26,425 nucleotides of DNA from a virus (lineage: Duplodnaviria; Caudoviricetes), in the IMG/VR virus record IMGVR_UViG_3300035396_000576, positions 1-26,425 of that record. One strand, written 5' to 3'. This document shows positions 1 to 26,425 of this stretch, in pieces; positions within the stretch are counted from its first letter, which is position 1, and each line of letters begins with the position of its first letter. The position numbers were made by a program, and so were the translations under genes. The notes under the pieces are model-generated. The model searched no databases. It was not told the DNA's origin and was given only the letters and a program-made list of their open reading frames with translations.

Positions 1-404
1 CATTTCTCCTCTGGACTCACTCTGGAGTATGAAGAATTGTTTATACTGGCTAGTTTCTTTGTAGGATATAGTGAATGGATGTAGTGTCAAATTTCATGCA
101 AAAGCAAGTATCTATACTCTTTTTCTGTACATACATTCATCACGATGACCTCTATTTTTGTATCTTTTCCTTCACCTTCAAAGGTTATATATCAGTTTGA
201 TTTCTTTTTACAATCTCTAGTCACTTCTAGTACGCTATGGATCTGTTTGGCTTCATGGATGTTTAGTACTTTGTAAGTGATCAAATCTTTGTATACTTGT
301 TGCTCTGTGCTGTAGGCATGAGTGCATCAAGGCAAAAGAATTATTCAGGCTATTATTGCTATTACTACAACTCGCAACGGTCGGTTCTCTTTGTCTGGTC
401 GCAT
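1..404 (-). CDS. Membrane-anchored or lipoprotein zinc metallopeptidase (HEXXH), 3' end outside the window
   Basis: Recoded translation MWPDKENWPLWVVVIAIIAGIILLPGCTHAYS...YLLLHEIGHYIH...YSRVSPEEK. It has a hydrophobic N-terminus ending in a lipobox-like LPGC. The HEIGH motif at 84-98 needs TGA=Gly. Confidence 0.75.
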
Positions 405-494
405 TGTTTATCTATAGGAAATAAATTTCTTGACTCTTGGAGTATACACATTTTCTTTCAAAAAGCTAGTGAAAATCAAAAGAAAATGCAAAAC

Positions 495-518
495 AAAAAA
501 GACCCCTTTCAGGATCTT
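495..518 (-). terminator. Rho-independent terminator
   Basis: Minus strand AAGATCCT-GAAA-GGGGTCTT followed by a T-run, downstream of the peptidase gene. Confidence 0.7.
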
Positions 519-624
519 GTTTTGGCGATTGGATGATACGCTCATCCAGAAACGTAAGTATATTGTCCACAATGCCAGTGGAATGCTTTCATATTACAAT
601 AATTCTCCCAAAATTCAACAGATT

Positions 625-1401
625 TTACACGGTTCTATTGATGTATTTGATCTTATCCTCACAGAGACTATTGAAATATTTGTCATTGCTCAGTGTGATC
701 ACCTCTTTCAGTAGCACAAGCAATCTTGATTTTCTGGCTATCTCTAGTTTCTTCTCGTCAGTCGTAGCTAGGAACACATACCCCTGACCACTGAACGTCC
801 CTTTGTCTACCATTTTTGAGTAGTTAGGTAATCAGTATACATTATATTTGTTTCAGAAATAGCTATCTACCACTTTTACCATCTTGTCATATATAGTAGT
901 TGTAGCATGTCAGAATGTACTAGGTTTGAACTCTACGCCATTGACTACTCCGTTATCGTTCTTGTCCGCTCAGTAAATTTTATTGCCTTTGAATGTCGTT
1001 GCTATGAGATATCATTTCTCCCAATATTTGCTAGCCTCAGATAACATCTGAATCTGAACTGAAACGACCTTTCTTTCTGGATACTTAGCATTCCACCAAT
1101 TACGTACGCAATCGACCGCTTTCCATAAATATCGACCATCGTTAGCGGGTTTTCATTGCTTTATTGATAGCTCTTTTATTTCTTTGAAGTCAGAATCTGA
1201 AAATTTATAGTTCATTGTCGCCCCAAGTGATGTTATTGAAGCGTACAGTGTACAGTCCGAGCTTCATCCTTGATTGTATTCGTATCGTACTTTATCTTGT
1301 TGTTGCAAGTTTGGTATTTCTGAGACGGCTCATGCTATGTAGTCGTTTGGACTGATCTGGTCTATTAGTTCTCATAATAGTCAATTGGTTTGGTTTTCCA
1401 T
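625..1401 (-). CDS. Papain-like cysteine peptidase, candidate endolysin (258 aa)
   Basis: Open from ATG 1401 to TAA 625 with TGA=Gly. Motifs YNQGGSSDCTLYA (Q...C), FGHATT and VVDSY match the papain-fold Cys/His/Asn(Asp) arrangement. It lies near a holin-like gene. Confidence 0.7.
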
Positions 1402-1423
1402 TTTTTTCTTTGGTAAAAAGATA

Positions 1424-1456
1424 AAAACAAAAGAGTACTGGTTTTACCCAGTACCC
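1424..1456 (-). terminator. Rho-independent terminator or attenuator upstream of the peptidase gene
   Basis: Minus strand GGGTACTGG-GTAAAA-CCAGTACTC followed by TTTTGTTTTT. Confidence 0.65.
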
Positions 1457-1514
1457 CATGCAAGACGCCGTTGTCGGCACCCTGTTTGTATATATAATAC
1501 ATGGTTTTTCAAGA

Positions 1515-1883
1515 CTACTTTTGGGTAACTACTCTGTTTATTGATAGTATTCATACTGGAGTCGTATACGAAGATGTAGACGATCGTGTCACCCTAAAAT
1601 CATAATTGAAATCTCAGAATCAGATTTGTTCTGTATCAGCTGGTGTCAATGATAGTGTGAATTTTCATTCAGTCGGCGTATCATTAGGGATCACCTTTTG
1701 CAACAAAGCGTTTTCATCCAATGGTTCAATGTCCTCTATGTCCTTTGTCCTTTTCACTGTGAAAAGAATGTCGGCTCATGTAAGATCTATTGGCTGGTCG
1801 GATGAGTTTGTAAGCTCGATAAAGAAATTACCAGAATTTCAGTATCAGATTTCCATAGTGATATTTCAAACAGCTTTTAGCAT
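1515..1883 (-). CDS. Ig-like / BppU N-terminal-like virion protein (122 aa)
   Basis: MLKAVGNITMEIGYGNSGNFFIELTNSSDQPIDLTGADILFTVK...GKFTLSLTPADT...FNYDFRV. The PIDLTG-x-I-x-F-T-V-K pattern is typical of these domains. Its start overlaps the upstream stop (TAATG). Confidence 0.55.
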
Positions 1884-2080
1884 TATAGATTTTTGATATT
1901 AGTTAAATCTGGATCAGAGGGAACTTTTTCACCTAGTTTACTATAATAATAAAACTGAACTATAAGAGCAGCAATATACATAAAATCTTTTGACTCTAGT
2001 TTTCATGTTATAAATCATATGCACATTGTTAGTAATACCATGAGCATTCAGATTCTCCTCGAGCTTTTAAATATATTCAT
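1883..2080 (-). CDS. Small two-TM holin-like protein (65 aa)
   Basis: MNIFKSSRRIGMLMVLLTMCIGFITGKLESKDFMYIAALIVQFYYYSK... has two hydrophobic segments and sits in the lysis region. Confidence 0.6.
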
Positions 2081-2104
2081 GTTTTTATTGTTATAGAAAT
2101 AAAA

Positions 2105-2416
2105 TTATTTCATCTTATCTAGTATTCTATATTTTATATCTAGATCTTCTACTCCCATAGACATAGCATCCATCCTGATCCTGATCAAGTCTTTTTGTGG
2201 TTCTGAGAACTCTAATTCAGCATCTAAAACATTGGATACACCATTTTCTGTTTTGATAGCTTTCTTGAATTCTCTGAATACCATCAAGGCTGTCAGCTCG
2301 TCCTCTTTTTGGTATACGAATGTGGTCTTGTCGGAGATGTTTACAAACATCATAGCGAATCTAATCAGTGCGATCTCGACCGCATCGAATTTAATCTTTT
2401 TAGTTTTTTCAGTCAT
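2105..2416 (-). CDS. Hypothetical phage protein (103 aa)
   Basis: Intact ORF even in the standard code, co-oriented with its neighbours and preceded by a promoter-like sequence. Confidence 0.7.
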   Translation of the reverse strand: MTEKTKKIKFDAVEIALIRFAMMFVNISDKTTFVYQKEDELTALMVFREFKKAIKTENGVSNVLDAELEFSEPQKDLIRIRMDAMSMGVEDLDIKYRILDKMK

Positions 2417-2449
2417 TGCATGTGAATAATAAAGTAAAAAAATACATTG

Positions 2450-2479
2450 ATTGTATAATCATAATACTGTATTTTTCAA
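2450..2479 (-). promoter_or_regulatory. Putative sigma70-like promoter
   Basis: TTGAAA-N18-TACAAT on the minus strand, in the intergenic gap upstream of 2416. Confidence 0.4.
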
Positions 2480-2487
2480 GTTTATTA

Positions 2488-2787
2488 TTACTTGCTATTT
2501 TTCTGATCCTGTCTTATGTCAAGCAACATAGCTTTTATCCACTGAATATCTACTTGCATTTGAGCAAACTTCACTTCGTTTCAGTCGACCTTTCTCTCTA
2601 GAGATTTTATAGTCTCCCGTATTTTCTCTTCATCTTTGATGTGTCAGTTTATACCTTTTATGGCTTCATCTACTTTAGCCTTGTAGTTACTAACTATCCA
2701 CGTATTACGAACAATAAAAGCAATAACAGTTATGATAGTTCATAATGAAGTTAGTAACATACCTCGTGATAATTGCATTTGATTCAT
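2488..2787 (-). CDS. N-terminal TM plus coiled-coil protein, possible lysis accessory (99 aa)
   Basis: MNQMQLSWGMLLTSLGTIITVIAFIVRNTWIVS...KFAQMQVDIQWIKAMLLDIR. A membrane anchor followed by a coiled coil, as often seen next to holins. Confidence 0.55.
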
Positions 2788-2845
2788 TTTTGTTTATGTA
2801 TTAAATTGTAGCCCCGAAATTGGAAAGCCACCTTGTTATAGAAGA

Positions 2846-3574
2846 TTATTTCACATACCTTTGACGACTTCATAGCGTATTTTTATATATCATTTCTATA
2901 AGTTCTAGGAACTCATTTTTAGATAAAGTAGATTTTGCCTTATTACACCGCTTACAACAAGGAACTATATTATCTTTTTCATATCACCTACTATTGTCTA
3001 CCCTATCAATTCAATTATACTTATATACAGCTCGCGATGTTTTTATATTTGTCGATGATATTTGATGCCTTCAACAATAAATACATTCTTTTTGTGTTAT
3101 CTCTAAAAAGTCATCAAAAGATATTTCAAAATTTCTTCATTTATCATTAGCGTTTCTTTTATACCCTCTGTAAATCTGGTACGCTGGTGCTAATCATTCG
3201 GGCTTTCTTATGTTTTCTTTCCATAAACATCAACAACTCTTTATTATTCATCTTGTTAGTTTTGAAGAACTGACTACTTTAGTATTTCAGCAATCACATC
3301 TACATTCTCGATAGTATGTATCTTTTTCTTTTCTATCTAATTTTATTGCGGTTAATTTGTTAATTTTTTTTCATTTTATATCTATGATTGGAGATGAACG
3401 TTTACATCAACAGCTTACTGTTTGTTTGTTAATAAGATGGGAAGAAGATATAAGCTTTTCATTTCAACAATCACACAAACATTTCCAAAGCTTATTTCAA
3501 TTTTTTGTTAATCACTGCTGGTCTAATACTAATAATCTTCAGAATCTCTTCCATTTCAAGTCAAGTATTTTCAC
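2846..3574 (-). CDS. HNH homing endonuclease with two N-terminal W-x-C-x-CDCG...SCGC repeats (242 aa)
   Basis: GTG start. DLKWKRFGRLLVL...LWKCLCDCGN...SCGC, then a second repeat YWECRCDCGN...SCGC, then CIYCG...NGIDRVDNSRGYEKDNIVPCCKWCNKAK. Confidence 0.85.
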
Positions 3575-3642
3575 TTTATGTAGTAAGATATAAAAAATAA
3601 TGTTATTTTATATATACTTGACTACTTTATATTTTCAAGTGA

Positions 3643-5952
3643 TTATTTCGAGTATCTTGCACGGCTTCAAAGTGTATCTACCTGTACGTGCATTGCTATT
3701 TGTTCTAGCAGTGCATCTCAGGCGTATGTATCTTGTGCATCTGATGGAGTCCTTCTAAGATTGAATCAGATTTTATCTCATATTTGATATCATAGATTTG
3801 GCAATACTCACAGACTAATAATGTGATGATAGTATTGAGTGCTAGCTACTACGGTGTCGACTACAGAGATTGTTGTTTGTGCTGATGGTCATAATTGTGC
3901 TGGTGAATGTTCCCAATCAAAGAATCGTTTTACAGCTCAACTTCATGTCGTATTTGGTCTCCAATGTACATGAATCTCTATCACACTTCAGTACATATAA
4001 TCATGTGGTATTTCAAAGCTTCAAGATAATCTTTCTTGTGTTGCTCCTCAATCAAAGGCGTACATTTGTCTAGCTACTCATCATATTGTAGCTCCAACGC
4101 TATCAGGTGCAGTTGCTCAGGAAGCAGGTACAAGTATTGCAGGGTATTCATCTCTATAGCAAGAAGCATCACCATTAGCTACGTATGTTCAATCAGCTTC
4201 AAAACTTGAATAATTCACTGGTCATCATATACGAGCCGTTCAGGCTTGTATTCATTGTTGAAAAACAGGTACTCAGTTGATTACCGTTTGTGGTGTCGTC
4301 TGGTCTATTTTGAGAAAGTCTGATATTTTACTAGTAAAATCAAAGTATTTTCAAATGTTATTCCATACTGGAAATTGTCAGTCTAATGTTAATGGAGTTC
4401 AGTTTATATCTGAAAGTTCTTCTAGTGTTTTATGTCTTTGGATATTTACTAATATGCTACCTATTCAAGCACCTCATACAATAGCCACCGTTCAAACGAT
4501 GTCTGAATGGTGTGGTGCTGATGGTTCAATATTGGTTAATTGTCAAGCCACTGTTTTACTTACATAGAGCAAGTCTCATTCTGCCCAAGTAGTTCACCGA
4601 TCACCAGCTCAGCTATAGTTAGTTTTTATTTGTCTTACATATCATAATATCGTAACAAATCACTCATCATCATTAAGTATATCTTGTGTAAGTATTCAAA
4701 CAACCTTACTTGTAGAGTCAGAATCTGAACTTGCCAATAAAGCCTTTGGACGATTTCATTGTCTTCCAGAAAAATAAACAGGACTACCATTAGGGAGTGT
4801 TGAACCTGTTTTGTTTATGCATTTAATAAATAGCTCTTGTCAAATTTGTTGCATTACTCCAAAAGGCATACCCAGATCCATAGTTCAATCTGTACTATTC
4901 CACCTCATTTCTCATGGATTCAAGGCATCAACTGAGGCTGGTGTTTCGTCAAATACCAATGTATCTATATTGGAGTTGCTTCAGTCTGAATTTATGTAGC
5001 TTCAGGCAGGTTGTTTGCTATTAAAAAGATTCCAATCTGATCAACTCAAATATCAGTCTACTCACGCCGAAGCGACTCATAGCTTAGTTTTTATTGACGA
5101 TTGTGTTTCATCACCTGTATTTGTTCAAGAAACAAGATCCAAATATGATCTATTTGTATGTGTAATTGCTATCTTTTCGGCTGGTGTCACGAATACTCTG
5201 GTCAAGCTTTCTGTGATCTGGTCAGCTGTATAGTCACCACTCTGTGCAGAGATAGCTCAGGTTCTTCAAAATACTGAGACTACTCAGTTTGCGGTTGGTG
5301 ATCTCTCTCGGATAGTTCCATTGTATATCACAAAATCACCTATATAGAACTTTATAGCTCATGATCATAGGTTTTGTGTTCACTCTACGCTAGTCCTATA
5401 AGTATCTCACGTATCACCAGTTCAGTCAGCTAGGGTTGGCGTATTTGTCAATGCGTTCCATGCTCCTTTGTATTCCATTATAGAAGTAGGGAGTTGTGCC
5501 ATTGGCACCTTTCATCATGAGTCAAGCGAAGCGTATCAGTTTGCCACTCATCTATTTGCCACATTTTCTGGAGTAAATCAGAGTGCATTTTGCTTTGAGT
5601 TGAATGTATTCCAGTCCGCAGAAGACAACGCCCCATTTATGCTATTTGTCGCCAGTCATAGACTGAGAACTTGCCCTAGTATTGATAGTCAGTTTCATGT
5701 TCAGATTGTCACTGGATTGTGTAAGTCAGAAAGTTTCGCATCTACTTGTGCTGATGTATAATAATCTAGCAGTATAGCATCAGATTCAGTCTTTGTATAG
5801 ATATTACCAAAATAACCATTTCAAGCAGAGATGGAGTGTGGTCATAGGTTAACATCTTTGAAGGCACCAGTATATGGTACAAATTCTACAGGGATGTCTG
5901 CGAATTTGTATATGATTGGTTCTTCAGCCTCTAGCTTGAATTTTATATCCAT
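3643..5952 (-). CDS. Tail fibre / receptor-binding protein (769 aa)
   Basis: 2310-nt frame open with TGA=Gly. Fibre motifs include GVANGYASLDSGGKVP, YKGAWNALTNTPTLADG, VVSVFGRTGAISAQSGDYTADQI and a repeated DWN-x-FNSKQ. Confidence 0.8.
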
Positions 5953-5981
5953 CTCTATTTTATAAAAAAATTAAATCTGAT

Positions 5982-6344
5982 CTATACACTCTTGGGATAT
6001 TTATGTTTTACTTCCATTACTCTTGCCTTCATATCTTCCATATCCTGTCATCATTTCCATATAGCATCTAATTGGTCTCAAATACTTGGATATTCTGCAA
6101 GTCTTTTACTTTGATATTCATATTTTTTATAATTCAAATATTCATCATTATCTGATACCACCAGTTCTCATTCTACTATTTCAAATAAGCATCCAAATTT
6201 TTCGATCTTTTCCATATCAATATCGGAAATCTCAAATTCTTGTAAGTTGTCTTTCATTTTTTCGTAAGTGTCTTGTCTCCACTCGACCACTCATATGTAT
6301 TTTGTAGTTCAATTCTTTTCTTGTATCAGTGTGACTTTCTTCAT
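5982..6344 (-). CDS. Tail fibre-associated (assembly/chaperone-like) protein (120 aa)
   Basis: The C-terminus KRLAEYPSIGDQLDAIWK...VMEVKHKYPK matches the widespread phage R-xx-EYP-x-I-x-DQLD...VK-x-KYPK motif found next to fibre genes. Confidence 0.7.
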
Positions 6345-6366
6345 GATAATGAATTTTTATATAAAA

Positions 6367-7065
6367 TTATACAGACTCATAAAAATTACAAATAAGCGAG
6401 GATGAAAATGTACCTAGAACTGCTTTATAGTATTGATCTGGTAAAATCGGACAACTCAATGTCATCTGTGGAGTTTGAGAACTTGCCACTAGATGTCAGT
6501 AAGCCACTATTGTCGTTGGTGTTGAATTCGAGTCACTATAAATTCGTGCATCGTTTCAAGGATTAGAAGCACTTCATTGGAACGAGAAAACTAAAAGTCA
6601 TCACTTACCTGATGCTTGGTATGTTGTACCTGCTGTTTTTGGTGTTTTTGTATTATAGGAAATTGATGCTGATAATATAGCACCTCCTACAACATCGTAT
6701 CTGAAATCAGAAATAGATGTTATGACTCATCAAGAACAAACAACAGTAGCTAATCTAGCGTAGTCAGAATTCCACGTAGTGGTATTTATTTGTATTACTC
6801 ATGATCCATCTATCTGCACGTAATTTGTTGCGGAGTCTGTGACTGAAATATCTATTCATCAGGCGTATTGTCATATAATAGCACCTACTACATAGTTTCA
6901 TGCTCCAATATCTATTTTTAATGCTATCCCACTTATAGCAAGAAAGACTTTCAGTCTATCGTCTCAATTTGCATAAATATCGTCAATATCTTCATTGATA
7001 TCTTGCATTCTTGACGCCTGTAGTTCGTCTTCTGGTGATCGATTCTGGCTGTTTTTTCTTGGCAT
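6367..7065 (-). CDS. Tail tip or short fibre structural protein (232 aa)
   Basis: MPRKNSQNWSPEDELQASRMQDIN...NYVQIDGSGVIQINTTTWNSDYARLATVVCSGGVITSISDFR. Beta-rich and in tail context. Confidence 0.6.
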
Positions 7066-7075
7066 AGTTTACTTT

Positions 7076-7627
7076 TTAGTAGCTAAAGTTACGCTCGGGG
7101 AATATCAATTTCAGATGCAATCTCTTATGGTCTTTTATGGTCATAAGTCTTAAATTTTCAAGGTCATTATTTGCTTTATCAAAATCAATATGATGTACAC
7201 ATTCCTTTGATTTATCTATTTTTCTTCATATCTGTGTTTCTATCAAATGGATATGTTCACGTGCCCAATTTCATTCTCAAAGTTTTATCAAGATATATCA
7301 TTGTGCATTTTTTCTTCTAGTTCATATTTCTGTATAGTTTGGGTTGTCTTTTGATTTCCATATTATAGACATCTTATCCATAAATTCTTTAGAATGATTA
7401 TTTCATCTTTTGATTGCACTATCTGACATCTTTTTTCTAGATTCTTCAGAAAAAACGCCAGTCTTTCATTTATTCCATCATATTCTACCTTTGCAACTTT
7501 CAGATATTTTCTTTCTTTGTTCATCAGTAAAATGTTTTCATAATCTTGCAGGCTTTCTACCTTTACATCCTAAACGAATTTTTTTCTTAGATTCCTCTGA
7601 CATTTTAGATCATTTTCTCATAGTCAT
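7076..7627 (-). CDS. HNH homing endonuclease with NUMOD3 repeats (183 aa)
   Basis: NUMOD3-like repeats SEESKKKI, TDEQRKKISES and SEESRKKMS plus WNKGK. HNH core EHIHLIE..IGRK...VHHIDFDKANNDLENLRLMTIKDHKRLH. Confidence 0.9.
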
Positions 7628-7687
7628 ATTAGTTATAAATTAAATATGATTATGATACGTATTTTATTCTAAAACTCAAGTTAATCG

Positions 7688-8206: not shown

Positions 8207-8207
8207 A

Positions 8208-10877: not shown

Positions 10878-12692
10878 TTAGAATGCTTCAATCATAAATT
10901 GTCTCCTGAATTGTCCAACCATTTCGTTGGCAAAGTTCAATGCTGTCTCTCTATCAGTTCCATATAGGTTTCCGATGTTTATGGTCACTCCTTGTTGTCA
11001 TCTCATATCTACAGGGATTCTTCTACCATCTGGCAAAGGTACCACCGCTTCGTTCATGCCACCTTCTCAGATCATAGCCATTGTAGGAGACGTCACCATT
11101 CCACCATTTGCGAATGCTGGCATTTCCAATCTAGGGATAGATACGTTTCAGATGGTTCATACATTGAACCCTGGGATCTTGTTTGCATATCCTATCATTT
11201 TATTTATTCAGCCTATTGTCGTATTTATCAGTCACTCTATCACCGCAATTACCGCATTTACTGGAGCCAATACTATCTTGATTATTCATCAAAACATTTG
11301 CTTGAATCATGCCCGTATTGCAGTGGTTCCTTCTCCATTGATGAAGGCAGTGATCATTTTAGTACCACCGACTATTATATCTTTTATTCACCCAAAAACA
11401 CCTCACACATAGGTTTTTATAAAATTCCATGCAGTGGTGAATAGTCATTTTATGATCTCAAATGAGATTCATAGATATATTTTTATAGCTTCAAAAGTTA
11501 CTTGTAATACTGTCAAAAATCAACTAAAAAATTCTGAATTAGTTATTCATAATGCAGATAGAAATTCGTTCCAAGCCGATTTCAACGCCGTCACCACACT
11601 CATTACGACTTCTTTTATTCCAGTCCAGGCTATTTGTATTCATTGCCAAATCTCTTCTACTATTGGCATTGTAGCATCTCTTATTCACAAGAAGTTTGTT
11701 GCCCATGCAGTGGCCAGGAGAGCCACTCAGGCGATCACCAATCATATAGGAGAAAGCAGTGCGGTCACTCATGCCACTATCGGACCGATTGCAAGTCAGA
11801 CCATTCATAAAACTGTAACCAATCATGCTAGTCATCCAGCCATTAGAAATATATTCTTTGTCATTTCTGGGTTAGCTGCAGTCCAGTCAATGAATTTCTG
11901 TATTATAGGAGTTATCGTCTGCATTAAAGAAGTTAGTATTGGTGTCAAAGATTGTCAGAGACTCTCTGATAGATTCCCCATCTGTACTCTAACTTTAGCC
12001 ATCTGTCAATCAAAACCCTGTAGAGCTACTTCATTTGTATATTTTAAGTTTTGTGCAAAACCTTCGTTTATTGCTTTCACCTTTTCCATTTCTGATCAAA
12101 ATTCTATCATTTTTTGTTGTGCATCAGTGAATCTGATACCACTCTTTTCGAGTATTCAAAATTGTCAGTTCAACGCCTTTGCAATCATATTTGCAGAGTC
12201 AGCCATTTGTTCTCAGCTTGCAGACACTCAAAACTGGTTGACAGAAAGATCCGCAAGACTTCATCATAATGCTTGTACGGCTTTATTACTCAGTCAAAAC
12301 GTAGATAATTGAGCAAGTCACATCTTTATATTGTCTCAGTCTAGGACTCACTTTTTTTCTAGTGTATCCGCTAGATCGGATGTGGCTTTGAGTTGTTCTT
12401 TCGTTGCCTTTGTTACCTTTAGCACTGCATGTTCCAACATTATAGATGATTTCTGTGCATCAGCGTAATCGGCAATTGATTTAATTGCAAAAGCTGATAT
12501 AGCACCAAAAGCTACAATTCAGTAATTTCTCATATTTGTGAATGTCTGTTTATTCCTTTCTCATCGTGCTGTGATCTTATCTCATGAGGATTTGATTGTT
12601 TTTGTAGTATCGTCAACAGATTTCTGTACCCCTTTAAGTACCGATGTGGCATTATCCTCAGCTAGTACCTCGAGCTTCATAATATCTGACAT
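10878..12692 (-). CDS. Tape measure protein (604 aa)
   Basis: Ala/Gly-rich helical protein: IAKALNGQFGILEKSGI, amphipathic repeats, and a C-terminal PAFANGGMVTSPTMAMIGEGGMNEAVVPL. It follows the tail chaperones. Confidence 0.9.
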
Positions 12693-12693
12693 A

Positions 12694-12952
12694 CTATCTC
12701 TTTGTTAAATCGTTAAAAATCTGATCCTTTTGGCTTGCTATTTTATCTTCTTGTTGTCTAATATATTCTTGGTTGCTTTTTTCTGTTAAATATAGCCGAC
12801 AATCATTACGAAAAGGCAGAGTAGTTTTCATCAAATCTTTTTCGGATCGTCAGAAATTTTCACAAAGAACGATATTCATGTATTGATCAAACCATCATAG
12901 TTTTATTTCTTTAGTCTTTCAAGATATTAGTTCGCCTCGGTATTTTTTTTTT
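12694..12952 (-). CDS. Tail assembly chaperone gpT-like extension, reached by -1 frameshift
   Basis: The -1 frame after the A10 run reads KKKYWGELISG...LCENFGWSEKDL...LTKR-TAG and ends 1 nt before the tape measure ATG. Confidence 0.75.
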
Positions 12953-13302: not shown

Positions 13303-14769
13303 TTAGGCCGTATAGTATGTTCATGCGTTGTCGTTTACTATCTCTATTTGTGTAGAGTAGTTTGTTGTGAATGAATATTTTGCAATACCAAGTATCTTTT
13401 CCTTTATGACTTCACCTGATTGATCAGTGATTTCATATGTTTGTGATACTACTTCAGGCAATGTTATTCTCATTGAGTAGAATGCGTTGTTCGTATCAGT
13501 TGGAGATACCACTTTTGGTATTTCCAAATCTATAATATATGCGAGTGCTGATGTTTTTCTTTGTGCATCTCTATCTTGATTATTTTCGTAAGCTTTGTTG
13601 ATTTCTACCTTCACATCCAATCAAGTTGGAGTTGCTAGATTCTTCAAGTTCTGTACTGATTCAGCAACCTTCTTGTCGAAAGTCAGATTTATGTTTTCAA
13701 AATCTATAGGATCTGATGCCAATGCCAATGCGATAGTTGTTCATCTTCTTAATGTTACGTTTGAGAAAGAGAAGAAATCTACTGGAGTGATCACGGCTGT
13801 TTGTTGCACCAATTCAACCTTATTCTCATTCGCCACAGTCATTGCGGTGGAGGTAATAGTATCGAATCAGATTACATCATTTGCATCGTCAACATATCTT
13901 ACGGTTACATCTTCAGTTGCTCATAGGTTATTTGATAGTCTTACTATATCAGTAGCAAGTACACCCTTCACAGTCCTTTCTCCAAAAAACATCATAGAAA
14001 TCTGATTGATTGTTCATCCTGTACCTACTCCAGATGAGAGCGTACATGATAGATCAACAGTTGTACCGTTTACTACGGTCACTACTTTCCAGTATCCATT
14101 GTATTCACTTACGCTATTTCATGTCACTTTTACTAGATCGTTCACTGCTAGTCAGTGTGTTGCAGATACTACCCTCAAAAGTCAGTTTGTAGGAGTTGCA
14201 CTCGTTACTGCTTTCGTCACAGCCTCTACCTTCTCATTTGCTATCAAGAAAGCGACATCGAACATTCATTGTCCTTTGACTTCGTTTTCCATCTTTACGA
14301 TAGCGTTTGATTCTATTCAGAGTTTTGTGCTGTTTGGCACTATTCAGTACGTTCTTTGTACTATGATATTTGTCTTATCAGATGATGATTCACATCAACC
14401 TTTTTTGTTCTCCATAGTCACTGATTTGTATCCACATACTTGATCCATCAAGGTATGTTTGTATACTGATCCATCCAATAAAGATGAGATATCAGCAGAC
14501 GTCAAGGATCCTAACAGCATATAAAATCGAGCCAAAGAGTTCTTTGAATCTACTTCAACATTTACTGATCATTCAATCTTGTTTGCTCATTTCGCCATGA
14601 ATACGACGTTATTCAGCGTATTGAAACGACTCTCAGACTGGATGTTCTCAATGTTTTTACTCAATGAGTTCTCCATTTCTGGTATAAATTTATTAGGGAT
14701 TCTTGGAGTACCGTTTGTGTTTTCTAATATCCAGGCGGTATAGACCGCTTTTGAAGAAACTGCTGACAT
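13303..14769 (-). CDS. Major tail (tube) protein with inserted beta domains (488 aa)
   Basis: Joins track fragments 14587-14769 and 13321-13620 in one frame. KIEGSVNVEV...MLLGS...VYKHTL is tube-like. Insert THGLAVNDLVKVTG....YNGYWKV. Confidence 0.75.
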
Positions 14770-16050: not shown

Positions 16051-16072
16051 CAGAATCTTTTTATTTATAAAA

Positions 16073-16564: not shown

Positions 16565-16582
16565 CTGATTTTCAGAAATAAT

Positions 16583-16620: not shown

Positions 16621-16637
16621 ATTTTGGATATTCAAGA

Positions 16638-16958: not shown

Positions 16959-16977
16959 CTTACATGTTTTTTATATA

Positions 16978-17012
16978 ATAAAATAGGGTACACCCCAAAG
17001 GATGCACCCCCT
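16978..17012 (-). terminator. Rho-independent terminator after the major capsid gene
   Basis: Minus strand GGGTGCATCC-TTTG-GGGTGTACCC followed by TATTTT. Confidence 0.6.
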
Positions 17013-17018
17013 TAGAAT

Positions 17019-18026
17019 TTAGCTAATTACAGTAGTGATCAATCTAGCACATTTCTGATCGATGATGTGCATATCGTATTCATCCTGTACAATTACCAAT
17101 GAGTCCAATGAGTTTTTCAATTGCTCAGTCAATGGATAAGCGGCAGATAATACTCTTTGTGATCCTCTTCTTGTGAAAGTTTTTCCGAATCATTTTGAGT
17201 AAAGTCCTGGTGCTTCATTGTAACACATGAACACTTTCTTTTCTACCAAGTATGATAGAGTTCCTTCAAGATCACCAGCTCCATCCCATTTCTGAGCTTC
17301 AGATATAGTTATTTGGGTTCAGAGAGCGTTCTTTAGGTTTTCAGTCAATGATGGTATAGTTGGAGTAGTAGTATACTTGAATCTATCAATCACTTTCGTG
17401 TTGTTAGTGATAGCAACCATTACATCCAAAGACAATACTATTTCTGTAGGCCAGCTTCAACATTTGTCTTTCAATAGTTTTGCTTGTGCATACAAAGTTG
17501 ATATTGGATCTGAATTTGATACTCCAGAAGTCATACTATCGAATCTATCAGTTCCTGACAACGCAACATTATTTGTGATAACGTTCGAATCAAAAATTTG
17601 TGATAGACATGCGTATTCTTTTGCCAAATCGTATGAACCTTTCAAGATGAACATTTTGTCTCTTTGTGCATCGATTGGAGCGTCAGCATTTTCGATATCT
17701 GTTTTGTAGATATCAGTATACAATGCATGTTCTTCAAGAACCCGTTCATCATCCAATCTTACTCAAAATTCGATCTTGTTTGCTCAACCTTTCCAACCTT
17801 TTCTTGTTGTATAGATTGCCATTGCTTGCATTCAAAGATTTGCGATTTTACCCTTTGCCTTTTTCACAGCAACGATTGGGAAAATCTTTGTCCATACATA
17901 CTTGCTATCATCATTTTTGTAAGCCAATAACATTGACTGCAAAAGCTCTGGTATGTAGGCATCTTGGAAGTCACCAGCAGTAAATAAGTTCGTTCCCTCA
18001 GGAAGGGAGAATTGTTTTGCTAACAT
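17019..18026 (-). CDS. Major capsid protein, HK97-fold (335 aa)
   Basis: Joins track fragments 17832-18026 and 17457-17756 through six TGA codons. Motifs KIFPIVAV, EEHAL, SDPI and FGKTF, and the position after protease and cement genes. Confidence 0.85.
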
Positions 18027-18067
18027 TATGATTTTTTAATAAAGATATAAAAAAGTTTTCAGGTCGA

Positions 18068-18481
18068 TTATGGAGTTGGTACTAATATAACTGCAGGAAA
18101 TTTTCTGAATTCTACATAATCACCAGCCACTCATGTAGCCAATGCCGTTGCAACTTGGTATGATCCAGCCGCAGTTCATACTATGAACCCGCTTGCTCAA
18201 TCTGTTTTAACATAATCACCCAAAGTCACTCATCCTGTACCTACCAAACCTACAAAGTATTCCGCTTCATTTACACCAAGTGTATATCAAGCATCTTTTT
18301 GCTCGTTTGTGATACCCATAAATTTTGCAGAGTTTGCTCCACACACAACTACAGTGTTTACATCCGCAGTAGATATTTGAACTGGGATTCATTTTGCCAT
18401 TGTAGTTTTTGCGATCCAAGAAGATTCTTGTGTTGGTGTATTGTGAGTTGTTACTCCAAATACGTCTGTACTATTAGTCAT
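18068..18481 (-). CDS. Capsid cement/decoration protein, DUF2190-like (137 aa)
   Basis: Gly/Ala/Thr-rich: GGVTLGDYVKTDGASG...VATALATGVAGDYVE, between the protease and capsid genes. Confidence 0.7.
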
Positions 18482-18510
18482 GATTGCTTTTTAATAATGA
18501 TATAAAAATA

Positions 18511-19623
18511 TTACTTTTTCTTTTCGATCTCGTAGCCATCCTTCAAAGCTTCATACGCTTTGTTGAAGTCTACATTCTTGTCTTTTGCGTAGTCATTACA
18601 GATTTTATTGAAAGCTGATTCACTCACTACTTTCTTTTTTCAATCTGTAGACATTTTTTCTTCTTCCTTGTCCTCCTTTTTAGCAAAATTTTGTGAAATC
18701 TGACCATTAGTCAAAGTATCAACAACTTTTTGGTAGTTAGAGAATAGTTTCTTAACTTCTTCCACTTCTTCATCGTCCAATTTAGAGAAAGCTTTTAGAA
18801 CTTTTTCAGCTCCTACCTTCTCTTCTTCAGCTTCTTGATTGAATGCGTGGATTGTTGAGAACTTTTGTACTATTTCTGAAAATCTCTTTCCAGCTTTAGC
18901 CTGTGCAAGTTCTTCTTTCATAGCTTCTTTTTCAGGATCTGAGTACTTGTTCAAAGTAGCTTCAGTTTCTGCTTGAAGTTCTTTCTTTTCATCTTCAGTG
19001 GCTTCAGAGAAAGTTTTTGTTAGTTCAACTTTTTCATCGAAGCTTAGAGCCTCTTTAGAAGAGAACTTTAATAGTAAATCTTTAAGCATGACGGTTTCAT
19101 TTTTAGTAGATAAAATTGTATTTGTTTTTGTCTCTTCGGAAGGGTCGCTTGCAACGATTTTGTCCATACCATTGAAGTACGGGTAGTTCGTTAAGGCACC
19201 GCCTACTAGGACGTTTTCAAATCGTTTCATAGTATCAGGATCCTGATACTTATCAGATAGCTCTGCGGAGAAATATTTGTAATGTTTCCCGTTCAAGTTA
19301 TCAGCACCGTTCTTTGTAAGTTCTATGTCAGCCCAGAGTTCGTCTCATTTAGAGTACACTTTTTTGATCCATGCTTGAGCAGCAGTTCTATCGTGTTCAA
19401 GATTGATTGGGATCTCGTCTTTCCTTACGTTGTTTTCAAAATTCCTTATAACATTATTGAAGTATTTCTCATCTATCAATATTTTACCATAGAATGGATG
19501 AGTCCTATTGGCATACTTCAAAATCTGAATAGGGATAATGTCCCCTTGCTTTAGATCTTGTTGCAATGCGAAGATTTTTATTTCAAAATGTTTAACGTTT
19601 TTTGATACTACTTTTTCTGGCAT
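18511..19623 (-). CDS. Prohead protease/scaffold, Mu gpI-like (370 aa)
   Basis: IPINLEHD..AQAWI...LWADIELTKNG...YKYFSAEL...LVGGALTNYPYFNGM followed by an acidic helical scaffold. Joins two track fragments. Confidence 0.88.
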
Positions 19624-19672
19624 TTTTTGTTTGAGAGATGTAAAACATATTCTATATAGTATATTTTGGCAA

Positions 19673-22225
19673 TTATTCAATAGATTTTTTCAATCTATCT
19701 ATTATTTCCTGGTTTTTTTCTTTCCTTTTTCAGTTCAGACTTTCATTCTTTTGCATTCTCCAGTCTATCTCTTTTGTGATCTGTGCTACTGCTGGTGAGT
19801 CTTTTGATAATACTGGAACCTTCAATTCTTCCTTGCTTGTGATCGTATCCTTCACTGGTATGCTAGAAGATACTTCAGTATAATCAGGCTTGTATTCTTC
19901 ATCGTCGTTTATGAACACCCGCATTGATCTACAATGTATATGTTGAGGCGGTGAGTAGTTCTTGTAATCGTCAGAGTCCACCTTCACCACGGTACCATCT
20001 AGGGAAAGACATCTATTTGAAGTCCTTCAGTCTATGATTGCGGAGTACTGAGCACCATATATCTTGCTTGCGTTTGTATACGCTACTGATTTCCTTCAAG
20101 AGTTGAACGCTTGATTGATTCAGATTGTAGATACTATTCAGAATGCTTGATCAAGGTATGGTTTCACTGCTTTCTTCACAGACACCACAACGCCTGAGGA
20201 TGGTGTGTTCTTCAATCAGTCGTTCTTTGTGATTGCTGTCGCTATTATAGCTTTTGTATCAGTAGTCACCTTGCTTATTATTCATTCAGAAACGTTGTCA
20301 GCTTGTATCTTGATCACGTCTTTCAGATCTTTTTTGCTTTCTGGGATCTGTACCCCTATTTCTCTACTCGCTTCATTCTTTCAGTAGTCAAAGTTCTTCT
20401 TGTATGCTAGTGTCACCATAGAAGATATCTCAGCACCGTATTTTGCGGTCAACGCAGATATTGCGGTCATATCGTTTTTTTCTATAAGGGTCTGGACTTG
20501 TGCAAGTAGCTTATTTGTCATTTCATCAGTCACCTCTGAGTATTGTTTTCTAAGTGAGTCAGTCTCTTCGTTCAAATTATCTTTGATTGATTTGATTGCT
20601 ACCCTTCTTTCAGCGAATGTCAGCGGTCTCCAGAATCCATCTTGTATAGGATCAGAGAAGTTTCTTTTTCAAACATCGTCTGATTCTTCTAGTCAGTCAA
20701 TTTGGTGTTGTATGATCGATTCATGGTCAAAGTCTATTCAAGAGAAGTTTATATTTTCACATCCGCAATCTGTATGTTTTTTTGCTTGCTCTTTTGCTAG
20801 TTTATCAGCCTCTTTTTTGGCTTGTCTTTCAGCTTTAGCAGTCTCTACTTCATCTTCTTCTACTGCTGGAGCCATATCTGGACTAGCTTGTTGCTTGGAT
20901 TCGTTGTATTGCTCTTCGGATATCATAGGTAAATGCAATAACTCTCTTACATATCTTTCAGTGTCGTAGTTTGCAGTAATTATTCCACCGCCTACCAACG
21001 CAGACATAGTAGAAGAGAATTCTGATGGATCCACCAATCAGATTTGTCCGAACTTCACCTTTGGCATTCTCTTTGTTTCTCAGAAATTCAACGCCACTAT
21101 TTTTGGGATGAGATATTTGTTGATTACCTCCATGTCTTTTTCTAGCAATCACTTTACGGCTTCAAAGAAAAAAGCCGTAGACTGTCAAGCCATACCGTAT
21201 GATCCTTTCTTGGACTTTCATAGATACAAGAATTGTTGGAAGAATATATCGTTGATATTTTGTGCATAGTGCTGGATAGCATCCTGGAGCTTGTTTGCGT
21301 TATCACCAATATTGGTGTTCATCCAATCATAGCCTACCAATGAAGCTCAGGTCGCAGGATCTATTTGTTCTACAACGTATCAGCTTTCTAGACTTCTCAT
21401 GTTCTCAGCTATGCTCTTGTATTTCTCTATTTCATCATCAGTCGTTCATTGTGGGACTTTCACTTTCAATGGTGGTATTGCCAACCTTTCTTGCAATACT
21501 GCATGATAGTTTTCAAATTTATCTTTGAAAAATCGGTCTTTCGCTATCTTACGATATAGTGATCGACCTTCGTAGTTTATTCATTCAGAGTTGATATTGA
21601 AAAGTATCAATTTATTTGATGGTATATCTATAGTGTTCTTTCCTTCGTTCGCTTCAGGATCGTCAGTTTCCTGAGTAGCTTTCGTGTAGTACGCTATTTG
21701 TTGTATTCATGGTTCTCATGTAGAAGTCAACCATTTGAAAACAGTGTCGGCGTAGATTCTTGTCAACTGTGGATAGAATCAGTCATCTTTCCTTTCAAAA
21801 TATAGTTCGAATAGACTGAATCAGTCCCTTATGTATAAGTTTATATCTTCAATCAGACCCTTGAATCATCTATCGAGATTATCGAACAACGCTTTTTCGC
21901 AGAACTTCGCTATTGCCACATCTTTTGCGTTTGGTTCCATGCCTTCATCAGTGTATGGATCAATGAAAAAGTTTGTAGATGTTTTCATGAGGGTTATTGC
22001 GTTTCTCATTTGGAACACCTGGCCATCGTTGTCCATTCTCATAAACAGCTGATACTTCTCGTATTTGTTCTTGAATCTGTTTGAGTATTCTTCAAACAAA
22101 AATCCTACATTCTGTTTGGTTCAGTATGTAGACTCACGCACAAAAAGAACTTTAGTTTTTTCCAGCTCTTCTTTGTTGATTGAAAACCTCTGGAGAATAG
22201 TTTTGATTGTTTGTGAGATATTCAT
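19673..22225 (-). CDS. Portal protein (Mu gp29/DUF935-like) fused to a MuF/SPP1 gp7-like head morphogenesis domain (850 aa)
   Basis: One 2553-nt frame joins four track fragments. Portal motifs GFSLFE, NYEGWSLYRKIAKDWFFK and GSYGMA. MuF motif YSAIIDGRTSNRCLSLDG...PPQHIHCRSMWV. Confidence 0.85.
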
Positions 22226-22229
22226 TTTG

Positions 22230-23825
22230 TTAGAAATCTTTAGTAAAAAAGCTCTTTTTAGGTGAGTATTTATCTATAAGCTCTTGTGCTTTGCTTTTTG
22301 TTCTTTCTTCTCATGGTATATCATTTTTTGGTTTCGATTCAATAGATTTTGTGTTTTCTTTTTCTATTTTATCAAGATGATATTTGAATTTGAGAATTAT
22401 TGCGGTGAAAGAGTCGACACGATCATCATGCTCAACGTTTGGAAATTTTATTAGTTGGGTTATGAACTTTTGATCGATATCTGGTGAAAATTCAACGGCT
22501 CCGCCTTCGAGATAAGGTTGGCATTCTCTCAATCTACCTATTTTACTTTTCCTTCATGGATCATATAGATGTATTATCCAATTAGGGTGTTTTGTCAACA
22601 GATATTTTCTCAATGTCATTCAACCAGCCTTGTTTTCAATAATAAATTCTGGTTTATCATACTGGTCGTATAGTCGACTGAGTCTTTCATCTATTCTTGT
22701 CAAATCTTTTTGCCTTCATGTCAGCTCCTCCGAGTGTCTCATATTCCACTTTCATGACTCCCTTATTCTAGTACCTATTGTGATACCTATCGGATCTGAT
22801 TTGTCTTTCTCAGACTCTCAGGAGTCGATCGATATATATGTTTTGTCTCAGTATGGGATCTTGTGATACTCCCTATATCTGATCCATTGCTCTTCTATGA
22901 TAGGTACATCGTTTCTCATTGGGATAAGCATATAGTTTGCTCAGTACCAGTCACGTCCTTGCTCTTCTCTAATATCTTCTAGTGATTGGACATAGTTCTC
23001 TATACGATTCTTGTTTATCTTGTCAGCCTCAGCTCTTGTTTTGACGAACCTATCTGGTCGGTGGAGTGTTCAGTCCTCTTTCATAAATCTCGTGTATACC
23101 ACCCTTCGCTTTGGGTTGTCTTTCAGTTCCTCTGCTAGTCTAGGTAGTACTCAGTCCTCATTGATAGTGTTTCAGAGTACTATTTTTTGTCAGAGTGATC
23201 CACCAAAGATTGCACCTTTTATTTTGTTGTATGTCTTTGTGATTATTCTAGGGTTTTGTGTATTCTCGTCATCGTCTATATCATCCAAAACATCTAAATC
23301 TGGTCTCAGTGACTGGTCTCATAGATAGATATTGAGTCATCTTGTAGATTTCTTGACTGAGTTGGCTTTTACGACCACACCGTTAGTAGAAGTGAATCAT
23401 GAAGTCCTTTTTTGTTCTTTCTGTTTGAAGAGTGCATCCATCACCCTATCGTTGTAGTATAGTCTTCAATAATCATGCACAAAAATACTATCACTAGATC
23501 AGATTAGCATATTTGATATGGATGTGATATTATCCTCTGCTTTGTTCACATCATAGGAAGTCCACCTGATGAATTTGTTTCTCTTTGTCGCTATCCTTTT
23601 ACAGAGTCGCTTTCTCAGGATAGACGTTTTGGCACAACCTCTATATCAGAACCGTATCAGATTTCATCAGTTATCTATCCAATCTAGTATTTCTTGATAG
23701 TCAGTCGGTGTATCAAAAAAATCATAGAAGTAAAAATCATTCCAGAGAGTTGGATCGTCAGGAAAAATTATTGATCTCAAAATACTATCATCTTGTATCT
23801 CAGCAATAAGTTTTGGATCTATCAT
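22230..23825 (-). CDS. terL: Terminase large subunit (531 aa)
   Basis: Walker A GYRGCAKTS, STRG...RPDLDVLDDID (Walker B), coupling motif VLGNT, HWPDRF and nuclease motif FPNVEHDDRVDS. Confidence 0.93.
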
Positions 23826-24364
23826 TTCTTCTTTGATTTGTATTTCTCTAAAATAGCTTGTTGCTTTTCATCGAGTTTTTTCTCTTCAGGGACGGGAGTG
23901 AGATCTAGTATTGTTCTAGTTGGCTCTCATTTTTCTGTTTTTACTATTTCCCGAATATTTCTAAGCTCCTTTGATATCCTTGTGGCATTTTTATTTACTT
24001 TATATGTAGTATTCCCATCTTTATCCTTTGATATTATAGTCATGTCATTCAATACAATCTTTCAAATATCCATTGTTCTCCTGTGCATTTCGTTCAATTC
24101 TTTTATAGATGGTTTGTAGATTTTTTCAGCCACTTCCTTCTCTAATTTGAGTACCGCTCTCTGCATTGCTTTTTCTTGGAACTTCTTTTTCTTCTCAGCT
24201 CGTCCTCTAGTCTGAACTTTCATTGCACCAGAATATCCTAGTTGACCTTTCTTTCACGGTTTTACTACTCACTTCTTTCTTAGGAAAGACTCTGCATATA
24301 TTTCGTCATCTGTCAAGTATTCTAAAAATAGAGTCTCTCGATCATATTTTCATTTTTGTGGCAT
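23819..24364 (-). CDS. terS: Terminase small subunit, putative (181 aa)
   Basis: MPQKGKYDWETLFLEY...TRGWAEKKKKFQEK, helical, and overlaps the TerL start. Confidence 0.7.
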
Positions 24365-24397
24365 TTCTATAAGTTAAATTATAAGTTAAAATAGAAG

Positions 24398-24934
24398 TTA
24401 GCCTCTTACTTTGCATTCGTAACCTAATCATTCAATATCAGATTTTACAAGTTCAGCCTCTCACATATCACTACAAAATACCGTAACAGTTATCGGACTG
24501 GGTTTGTTTTCCTCCTCTTCTTCTTCCACTTCCTCATCCCATATTGATAGTGGGACTTCATATTCTGGAAGATCCATAGCCTGTATCTCACCCATAGTGA
24601 AGTTTTGTTTTATGATTTCTATGTCCCATCTTCAATACTCAGTATTATCCTTGAATGCTCTTTTGTTCATAAGCTCTTCGGATATATTATCTTCTATGTC
24701 TATCCACTCATCAGGTATTTCATCGTATCATAAAGCTATGAGTCCTTTGAGTCTCTGGTTTCATGCGTAGACAATCAGAATCTCTTTTTTTCATTGCTTG
24801 GTCCTATTCACGAGCATTTTTCTTTTCTCCAAAAACTTAGGATCCTCTTTTAGTGATCTTTTCAATTTCTCTAGATTTTCATCTGTTATAGATCTTGGGT
24901 TTTTATCCCAGAATGTTAGTAGGTTTGTTTTCAT
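24398..24934 (-). CDS. ParB/Srx N-terminal domain protein (178 aa)
   Basis: KNPRSIT..LEKLKRSL...YAGNQRLKGL..LG...KDNTEYGRWD matches ParB-like motifs commonly found upstream of phage terminases. Confidence 0.85.
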
Positions 24935-25118
24935 TCGATATTTCAAAAAAAATAAATCTGATTAAATCGTCTATAGATATTATTACTTTCTTTCCTTTGA
25001 ATTCCATCTCTATTATTTTTCTACGTTCCAAAAGTCTCTTGGCTGTTTTCCAATTGAGTTCATTTTGTATTGCGTAGGCTAATAGTGATTTGTAGTATTT
25101 TAATGTGTTTTTCTCCAT
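24903..25118 (-). CDS. Small basic hypothetical protein, possibly DNA-binding (71 aa)
   Basis: Intact ORF, basic, co-oriented, overlapping the ParB-like start. Confidence 0.5.
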   Translation of the reverse strand: MEKNTLKYYKSLLAYAIQNELNWKTAKRLLERRKIIEMEFKGKKVIISIDDLIRFIFFEISNENKPTNILG

Positions 25119-25181
25119 TTTTGGGATAGTTTGCGATGTAAGTTGTTATTTGTATAATCATATAGTTTTCTTTTGCAATAC

Positions 25182-25212
25182 AAAAAAACGACCCAAATGG
25201 CAGGGTCGCTTT
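25182..25212 (-). terminator. Rho-independent terminator
   Basis: Minus strand GCGACCC-TGCCATTT-GGGTCGT-TTTTTT after the Dps-like gene. Confidence 0.75.
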
Positions 25213-25231
25213 CTTGCTTTTATATTATACA

Positions 25232-25666
25232 CTACACACCTAATTCAGCGTTGTTATTAAATACGAACATACGCAATTCTTTTTTATAATCGATCAGCTC
25301 AGTGTTCAACACACTATCAAACGGTATCACTGCGGTCTCTCGTGTTCATAGGTACATCATAAGATAGTCCATAGCCTCTTTCATCATTTCTTTCTGTATG
25401 TCTACGTTCTTTTCGATCTCATTGTATGATACTATTTTGCTACTGATCTCTATCTCAGCGTATTGCACTGGTAGGGTGATTCATTGCACCTTTGCACTCT
25501 CCATCAAAAAATCTAGCTTTCAGTCTGCTCGAGTGTACACCTCACTTAGGAATGGATGGTAGTACATCGATCACTTACCTGCACAGTTTACGTGAAGGTT
25601 GTGAGTGTTGTCTCTTAATACAAACAGGGTAGAGAATAGTTGGATGTAGATGTCTTTGAATTCCAT
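25232..25666 (-). CDS. Dps/ferritin-like protein (144 aa)
   Basis: RDNTHNLHVNCAGKGSMYYHPFLSEVYTWADGKLDFLMES aligns by eye with the Dps pattern H-N-x-H-W-N-V-x-G...H..F.E.Y.......D...E. Confidence 0.7.
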
Positions 25667-25705
25667 CGGATTATTGTTTAGTATGTAAAGGTTTATATAT
25701 GTGTA

Positions 25706-26005
25706 TTATCTTTGTGAGTTCAAATTCAATAGATAATCGAAAGTAATCTGATTTCCTTCAGCGAGCATGGACTCTATTACGTGTTTGTTTCCTGAGGTTA
25801 ATCTATCTACTTCTCTGTGACACTCGATACTGCACACCATGATGATATTATTTGGATCGTACTTGTATTTCTTGTGCATACCGTGACCCAACACGTGAGC
25901 GAAGCAGAACGTCTTTGATTCATATATGAAGGTTCCACACACTTCGCATTGGTGATATCTTGACGTCCATACTTTCCAGAATAGTTCTTTCAGACTATTT
26001 ATCAT
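25706..26005 (-). CDS. HNH/NinG-like zinc-binding nuclease (99 aa)
   Basis: CEVCG...FAHVLGHG...KYDPNNIIMVCSIECH. ATG at 26005 is preferred over the TTG at 26017. Confidence 0.7.
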   Translation of the reverse strand: MINSLKELFWKVWTSRYHQCEVCGTFIYESKTFCFAHVLGHGMHKKYKYDPNNIIMVCSIECHREVDRLTSGNKHVIESMLAEGNQITFDYLLNLNSQR

Positions 26006-26288
26006 CCTTCTTTTCAAGTTTATATTTTTGAATCATTGTTGCAAGATATTCTTTGAGATTCATTGGCTGTGCGTTCAATGTAGGATTCTTTAGATCTCGA
26101 TGTTTTAGTACAAACACTACAGATTCAAAAAATTCTTTTGTTCATTTCCCTTTGATCTCTTCTATGGAGTGGAAAACATCAGACATCAATACATCGAATA
26201 TCCTTGTTTTGTTCAACATCTTTTGCACTCTGCACATATTCACTAGAAGGAATTTGTTCAGTTCTTTTTCAGTAGATTTTTTAGTCAT
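25995..26288 (-). CDS. Hypothetical protein (97 aa)
   Basis: ATG 26288 to TAG 25995 with one TGA read-through, overlapping the next start. Confidence 0.6.
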
Positions 26289-26313
26289 AGTAATATATTT
26301 AGTCAAGTAAAAT

Positions 26314-26425
26314 CTAGTCTTTAAATTTTCGCTTATATCATAGTATATATTTTTGTTTTCATCTACATACTGCTGATATACAAGTAGAACTACATCATAA
26401 TTCTCTTTCTATGTCTCTTTGGCTA
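26314..26425 (-). CDS. C-terminal NUMOD1 domain of a probable homing endonuclease (partial)
   Basis: SQRDIERELGCSSTCISAVCRGKQKYILGYKWKFKD*. All three Gly are TGA and the W is CGA. Confidence 0.8.

Follow-up and report, generated by a model that had tools for sequence, protein, structure and literature searches.

Reading of TGA as glycine and of CGA and CGG as tryptophan in a tailed phage of probable Absconditabacterales host

Gene content of the window and the meaning of TGA

The DNA stretch analysed in this work (26,425 bases, 35% GC; hereafter the window) is the whole of the IMG/VR virus record IMGVR_UViG_3300035396_000576 and carries part of the genome of a tailed phage whose genetic code appears to depart from the standard one at three codons. 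The genes lie on the minus strand. When TGA is read as glycine, CGA and CGG as tryptophan, and TAA and TAG as stops, which is the reading used for the gene map, 33 genes are obtained. Most of them abut; 25 end in TAA and 7 in TAG, and one is truncated at the window's end. Abutting genes ending in TAA or TAG had been described in an earlier note made from the letters alone (the original prediction). Pfam and PHROGs identified a terminase, a portal-MuF fusion, a protease, the major capsid protein, a tape measure protein, a tail fibre and two HNH endonucleases (Table 1). The window covers the packaging, head, tail and probable lysis genes in a partial tailed-phage genome. The same DNA or close variants of it were present in a near-identical record and in independent sequencing runs; thus, the sequence of the window is not an assembly artefact.

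In-frame TGA was found in 32 of the 33 genes, and the 355 TGA codons make up 60% of the glycine codons (versus 233 GGN). Coding density was approximated by the coverage of the window with non-overlapping open reading frames (ORFs) of at least 100 amino acids, a proxy used in place of Prodigal. Coverage was 24% under code 11 and rose to 91% with TGA as a sense codon, the gain that the original prediction had named as a check; the values were 53% and 39% if TAG or TAA, respectively, was made a sense codon, and 3-18% in 20 base-shuffled windows with TGA as sense.

The residues aligned to TGA were counted in homologues with the query masked at the tested codons. The database copies of the window's own proteins (P0001, P0132, P0252) were excluded from all tallies, and 19 of the 149 portal homologues were removed as recoded. 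Glycine was the most frequent residue at 12 of 15 TGA sites in the HNH endonuclease, 11 of 24 in the portal and 48 of 57 in the tail fibre (sites with at least five aligned homologues). Expressed as aligned residues, glycine accounted for 1097 of 1299 in the HNH endonuclease and 1554 of 2074 in the tail fibre (119 homologues each), and for 653 of 1228 in the 130 unrecoded portals, where serine came next with 86. Tryptophan was the top residue at no TGA site among unrecoded homologues, and code 4 gave the lowest best-PHROG score for five of five proteins tested, which speaks against a code-4 phage (UGA=Trp). When all codons were scored against three relatives (see below), TGA scored 303 as glycine, followed by serine with 29.5 (n=180).

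The individual motifs in which TGA had originally been noticed at glycine positions were recovered on the minus strand: HEI[G]H (84-98, with TGA at 87-89), CDC[G]N (3461-3475 and 3284-3298), SC[G]C (3404-3415 and 3227-3238), YA[G]NQR (24752-24769), VL[G]NT (23166-23180) and YPSI[G]DQLD (6066-6092). In the tail-fibre repeat, GGG (5632-5634) and TGA (5053-5055) occupy equivalent positions (GALSSADWNTFNSKQ / gYLSgSDWNLFNSKQ). The motif C-R-[G]-K is likewise present at 26356-26367, but its label as NUMOD1 could not be confirmed, the only match being a weak, I-HmuI NUMOD-like one below the cut-off (E 0.009-0.016). The gain in density, the alignment of TGA to glycine and the presence of TGA in 32 of 33 genes, as well as in early genes of relatives, together place the phage, as far as sequence comparison can tell, among the code-25 phages.

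At residue 8 of the HNH endonuclease (3553-3551) a TGG codon, one base off TGA, stands in a column that is glycine in 89 of 100 homologues. This is probably a single substitution. A partial reading of UGG as glycine was considered and found unsupported, as none of 195 TGG partners among three phages was a glycine codon, and the CGA/TGA pairs in that comparison came from off-gene frames.

CGA and CGG codons

The window contains 35 CGA and 13 CGG codons (together 48 CGR codons). In the all-codon test, TGA, CGA and CGG were masked, and the near-identical loci L001 and L003 were left out. CGA scored best as tryptophan (31.5 versus 12 for tyrosine, n=13), and so did CGG (52.5 versus 10.5 for tyrosine, n=12). 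All other codons scored best as their standard residue, except CCC, which was uninformative (n=1); CGT, CGC, AGA and AGG remained arginine. By this test only TGA, CGA and CGG are seen to leave the standard code, a pattern that corresponds to the Absconditabacterales code: CGA and CGG as tryptophan, the other four arginine codons as arginine and the remaining codons standard.

Of the 48 CGR sites 24 could be aligned; at 12 of these at least one relative had TGG, at none an arginine codon, and the remaining sites faced CGR or Y, F, M, L, V, E, Q or H. Counted in two relatives, the partners of CGR were W 15 and R 0, whereas those of AGA/AGG/CGT/CGC were W 1 and R 135 (p 9e-20, the site-by-relative pairs not being fully independent). 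Unrecoded homologues gave the same picture. In the tail fibre, CGA 5310-5308, CGG 4599-4597 and CGA 3927-3925 were aligned to tryptophan in 53/61, 33/33 and 12/13 cases, in the portal CGA 21535-21533 and CGG 19921-19919 in 63/72 and 90/111 (130 homologues). CGA 3310-3308 of the HNH endonuclease lies in a tryptophan column (W in 88 of 114 homologues), as do CGA 23108-23106 and 23060-23058 of the terminase (W 13 and W 19 of 20), and the CGG at capsid residue 95 (17744-17742) is TGG in two relatives. The best PHROG score climbed from code 4 to code 25 and again to code 25 with CGR as tryptophan in five of five proteins; for the terminase the values with phrog_38 were 91.3, 124.1 and 135.0 bits. 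The original assignment to table 25 was therefore correct for TGA=Gly but incomplete: under that table 48 codons are still mistranslated, as CGA and CGG are read as tryptophan.

Recoding in relatives and the probable host

Two IMG/VR relatives, G618 and G619 (38 and 42 kb; CheckV completeness 91% and 100%), have the gene order of the window, and most of their core proteins are 45-75% identical to those of the window. Their early and replication genes are recoded, too. With genes divided into classes by our own assignment, TGA made up 62% of the glycine codons in the non-structural genes of the window and 64% in its low-copy structural genes; the corresponding values were 68% and 64% in one relative and 50% and 48% in the other. 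In the genes of high-copy virion proteins (capsid, protease, decoration, tail) the share was only 36%, 15% and 18% in the window and the two relatives, respectively (p at most 7e-6). This avoidance covers 17019-19680 and 13303-14769 of the window and equally the corresponding genes of G618 and G619, with a third-position GC content similar to that elsewhere, as if UGA were selected against in proteins made in large amounts. No tRNA genes were found in the window, nor by ARAGORN in G618 or G619. The genome-wide recoding and the lack of tRNA genes in two near-complete relatives point to adoption of the host's code rather than to a late-gene switch, and the original view that recoding belongs to the late region was not upheld. 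The first TGA of five key genes is at codon 35-65, so a standard-code cell would truncate these proteins.

No integrase (PF00589) was detected in G618, G619 or G620. G619 has additional ORFs of 190-350 codons in its early region (9645-12753), which are not present in the window.

That the host is a code-25 bacterium from the CPR (candidate phyla radiation), as originally proposed, is supported, and the meaning of CGA narrows it further. In the published Codetta calls CGA is tryptophan in 10 of 10 Absconditabacterales and in none of 15 BD1-5 genomes (12 Arg, 3 '?'; PMC8629427), which points to Absconditabacterales rather than to BD1-5 Gracilibacteria. The two genome orders compared here (that of G001 and that of G005) were given these two names by us, partly through the same published table. 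In a terminase alignment, all 8 CGA codons in conserved columns of Absconditabacterales-order prophages coincided with W/Y/F, and all 7 of those from the BD1-5 order with R/K (Fisher p 1.6e-4); in the window and two relatives CGA fell on W four times, on Y, L and G once each and never on R. The best terminase matches (240, 204, 193 and 192 bits) were all in the Absconditabacterales order. The capsid protein was matched in 1 of 141 genomes of that order and in 0 of 204 of the BD1-5 order. The contig concerned (G457:C141) is syntenic with the window: its terminase, portal, protease and capsid genes, three head-tail genes and the genes of the tail protein, the tape measure and the 889-residue protein are arranged as in the window, with identities of 26-36%. 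At its start stands an ATP-grasp/MATCAP gene that 105 of the order's 141 genomes possess, and an integrase comes next; the contig is taken as a related but distant prophage joined to a host gene. Mainly on the strength of the code, we infer the host at the level of the order, Absconditabacterales.

In G457:C141 the 3' end of the ATP-grasp/MATCAP gene is present a second time in degraded form, in the stretch that separates the host gene from the integrase (3473-3718, L118; 63% identical, 2 TAA); this is possibly an integration scar. The integrase is directly upstream of the terminase genes (4711-7114, L118), and there is no replication module on that side. In a tally of 48 bacterial GTPase loci there were few CGA codons, shadow frames included; in the Gracilibacteria loci L031 and L033 CGA was common and aligned to Arg/Lys, and AT-rich code-25 loci were nearly devoid of it.

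Of the host searches named in the original prediction, that for prophages gave the distant one beside a host gene; no match to a CRISPR (clustered regularly interspaced short palindromic repeats) spacer was detected in the 141 Absconditabacterales-order genomes, scoring being limited to two candidates per genome. BLAST of both halves of the window against these genomes gave short AT-rich matches only. None of 20 BLAST loci screened, including two matches of 28/29 nucleotides, lay in a repeat array, 6 further loci being outside this screen, and a Cas12a-type repeat pattern occurred in 0 of 141 genomes, which says nothing on arrays with other repeats. Alignment of the capsid against the genome contig collection yielded no relative, and scans with terminase motifs returned the known relatives and one unrelated standard-code element (L008/L010/L011).

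Taken together, the window very probably derives from a tailed double-stranded DNA phage of an Absconditabacterales (SR1) bacterium, which adopted the whole code of its host: UGA as glycine, CGA and CGG as tryptophan, UAA and UAG as stops. The phage would have taken over this code throughout its genome. UGA would be decoded by a host tRNA-Gly(UCA) and CGA/CGG by host tRNA(UCG)/(CCG) charged with tryptophan, in a cell without release factor 2 (RF2), whose loss appears typical for such hosts (PMC8629427, PMC13695967). The phage genes would be inexpressible in a standard-code cell, and UGA may be a less favoured glycine codon for abundant proteins.

Several observations weigh against this assignment. 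The G457 prophage is distant and sits in an incomplete genome bin, no spacer match was found, as described, and tRNA genes could sit in the part of the genome missing from the window, which by comparison with the relatives amounts to about 12-16 kb. Terminase homologues were also found in 23 of 204 BD1-5-order genomes, with up to 186 bits, and a quick terminase tree, from a search that had not run to its end, put the window clade in an open fork, no nearer to Absconditabacterales than to BD1-5 prophages. These two results, together with the published calls of CGG as tryptophan in 2 of 15 BD1-5 genomes and of CGA as uninferred in 3 (PMC8629427), would speak for a host among BD1-5 Gracilibacteria, or in some different code-25 lineage, with CGA likewise meaning tryptophan; such a host is nevertheless unlikely, because the published table has no BD1-5 genome with CGA=Trp, the BD1-5 prophage terminases carry CGA in R/K columns, the capsid protein was not found in the 204 genomes of that order, and the top terminase matches lie in the Absconditabacterales order. 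Other observations concern the reading of CGR. Three sites lie in non-Trp columns: HNH 181 (N), HNH 209, which is variable (T 17, R 16 of 115), and portal 221 (V 23, T 21, I 19, R 13 of 109). Reading CGR as tryptophan lowered the scores of the secondary profiles phrog_3322 (56.4 to 53.5), phrog_3118 (51.1 to 47.9) and phrog_241 (55.2 to 53.9). It also cost two weak Pfam matches.

The three sites would suit a plain table 25, in which CGA and CGG are still arginine or ambiguous and the tryptophan alignments are substitutions, and the arginine reassignments have been described as lacking experimental verification so far (PMC13695967). We regard this as very unlikely. In the HNH, tail-fibre and portal homologues, true TGG codons sit on non-Trp columns about as often as CGR codons do, the partner counts of CGR and of the other arginine codons are opposite, and CGA to TGG, which takes two base changes, is nonetheless the commonest change. 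Still less credible is a phage of a standard-code host that itself switches the code for its late genes, as proposed for TAG- or TGA-recoded gut phages. There are recoded phages whose hosts use the standard code (10.1101/2021.08.26.457843), and the window is incomplete and consists mostly of late genes. The recoding of the relatives, however, is genome-wide, which largely refutes such a switch; non-structural genes use TGA about as much as low-copy structural ones, high-copy virion genes use it least, and there is no suppressor tRNA of the phage's own in the window or its relatives. Moreover, altering two sense codons would be expected to damage host proteins.

The features of the window are listed in Table 1. 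The 22 bases upstream of 32 genes were, by eye, mostly A/T-rich without an evident Shine-Dalgarno motif. Between two small genes (25183-25211) the minus strand has an inverted repeat and, directly after it, a run of T, which together resemble an intrinsic terminator.

Table 1. Predicted features of the 26,425-base window
Feature	Position	Strand	Basis
Partial tailed-phage genome, 33 genes	1..26425	-	gene prediction, virus-class record
Metallopeptidase-like ORF with HExxH motif (HEI[TGA]H, 84-98), truncated at window end	3..404	-	weak PF06114, E 0.006
Probable lysis region	625..2787	-	putative functions
Lysis region ORFs: two small hydrophobic holin-like, one BppU-like, one of 258 aa without family match	625..2787	-	
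HNH endonuclease, 242 aa; TGA = 15/16 Gly codons	2846..3574	-	phrog_374
Tail fibre/minor tail protein, 769 aa, 64 TGA	3643..5952	-	phrog_13892
NUMOD3/HNH homing endonuclease	7076..7627	-	PF07460, PF13392
Putative tail protein, 889 aa	8208..10877	-	conserved in relatives and in G457 prophage
Tail tape measure protein, 604 aa, 40 TGA	10878..12692	-	phrog_1535, phrog_58
Probable major tail protein, 488 aa, no informative family match	13303..14769	-	position
Major capsid protein (335 aa), residue 95 encoded by CGG	17019..18026	-	phrog_1005
Probable capsid decoration protein, no family match	18068..18481	-	place between protease and capsid genes, kept in relatives
Mu-like prohead protease/scaffold	18511..19680	-	PF10123, phrog_328
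Mu-like portal fused to Mu-F head-morphogenesis domain, 850 aa	19673..22225	-	PF06074, PF04233
Terminase large subunit, 531 aa, 20 TGA, 5 CGR	22230..23825	-	phrog_38
Probable terminase small subunit, no family match	23819..24364	-	position; homologues upstream of terminase in relatives
ParB-like nuclease-domain protein	24398..24946	-	phrog_940, phrog_8071
NUMOD-like ORF, 3' end only (36 codons); C-R-[TGA]-K ... G-Y-K-[CGA]-K-F	26314..26424	-	weak match below cut-off

Comparison with known phages and implications

Phages in which TGA means glycine have already been published (PMC10746230; 10.1101/2021.08.26.457843; 10.1101/2024.03.08.584096), and so has the host code (PMC8629427). Liu et al. 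(mBio 2023, PMC10746230) predicted code-25 phages and prophages for Absconditabacteria/Gracilibacteria and assigned hosts by spacers, whereas the host of the present phage was assigned by the meaning of CGA and a prophage; this phage or its relatives may be among their Zenodo tables. The words 'CGA' and 'arginine' are absent from the main text of that paper. The combination of UGA=Gly with CGA/CGG=Trp was predicted in Absconditabacteria by Shulgina and Eddy (eLife 2021, PMC8629427). The code described there is the same as that of the present phages, with three reassignments, AGA as the main arginine codon and CGU/CGC as arginine, but it is described for bacteria only, and CGG was called tryptophan in 4 of 10 genomes (5 '?', 1 Arg); the phages provide denser evidence on CGG than the host genomes. 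The same paper holds a precedent for phages that follow a sense-codon change of their host (AGG=Met in two Bacilli phages).

RSA-ATP1, a 39 kb phage of Absconditicoccaceae (10.1101/2024.03.08.584096), was compared by its published description. It shares with the present phages a similar size, code 25 and the lack of an integrase, and, as in the present case, has related prophages (in Absconditicoccaceae). In contrast to the window, where 97% of the genes contain UGA, this codon occurs in 60% of its ORFs, and its genome has genes for four tRNAs, tRNA-Gly(UCA) among them, whereas the relatives of the window have none. 'CGA', 'CGG' and 'tryptophan' do not occur in the text of that report. The gut phages of Borges et al. 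(10.1101/2021.08.26.457843) resemble the present phage in having in-frame stops in structural genes, and code-25 phages in which about 90% of the genes are recoded are listed by the authors as well. Among their phages of standard-code hosts 26-71% of genes are recoded and suppressor tRNAs are frequent; in the present phages, by contrast, recoding is genome-wide and least in high-copy virion genes. The closest terminases among 50,697 annotated phage records were 25-28% identical. In searches of full-text literature, which covered few subscription journals, no report of CGA/CGG=Trp in a phage was found.

The database copies P0001, P0122 and P0252 have tryptophan at every TGA and arginine at CGA/CGG, an annotation that needs correction; table 25 alone would still misread 41% of the tryptophan codons (48/118). 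P0121-P0127, P0130 and the 19 recoded portal matches likewise are recoded phage proteins translated by code 4 in the database. In conserved tryptophan columns these portals show arginine in 6 of 12 and 6 of 14 cases, a sign of further phages with CGR as tryptophan.

We consider it reasonably probable that the window, G618, G619 and, more distantly, G457 represent a family of tailed phages and prophages that is new to description and uses the full three-codon code of Absconditabacterales, a code unreported for phages in print. What CGA encodes would then serve as a one-codon classifier separating phages of Absconditabacterales from those of Gracilibacteria, and hosts of code-25 phages could be assigned without CRISPR spacers. 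The phages would also lend independent comparative support to CGG=Trp, which is thinly supported in host genomes. Finally, the CGG codon of the capsid may make it possible to check an Arg-to-Trp reassignment in bacteria by experiment for the first time, on an abundant peptide; a 2026 paper still calls such reassignments experimentally unverified (PMC13695967): residue 95 would lie in the peptide LDDEWVLEEHALYTDIYK if it is tryptophan, and tryptic cleavage would be expected after LDDER if it is arginine.

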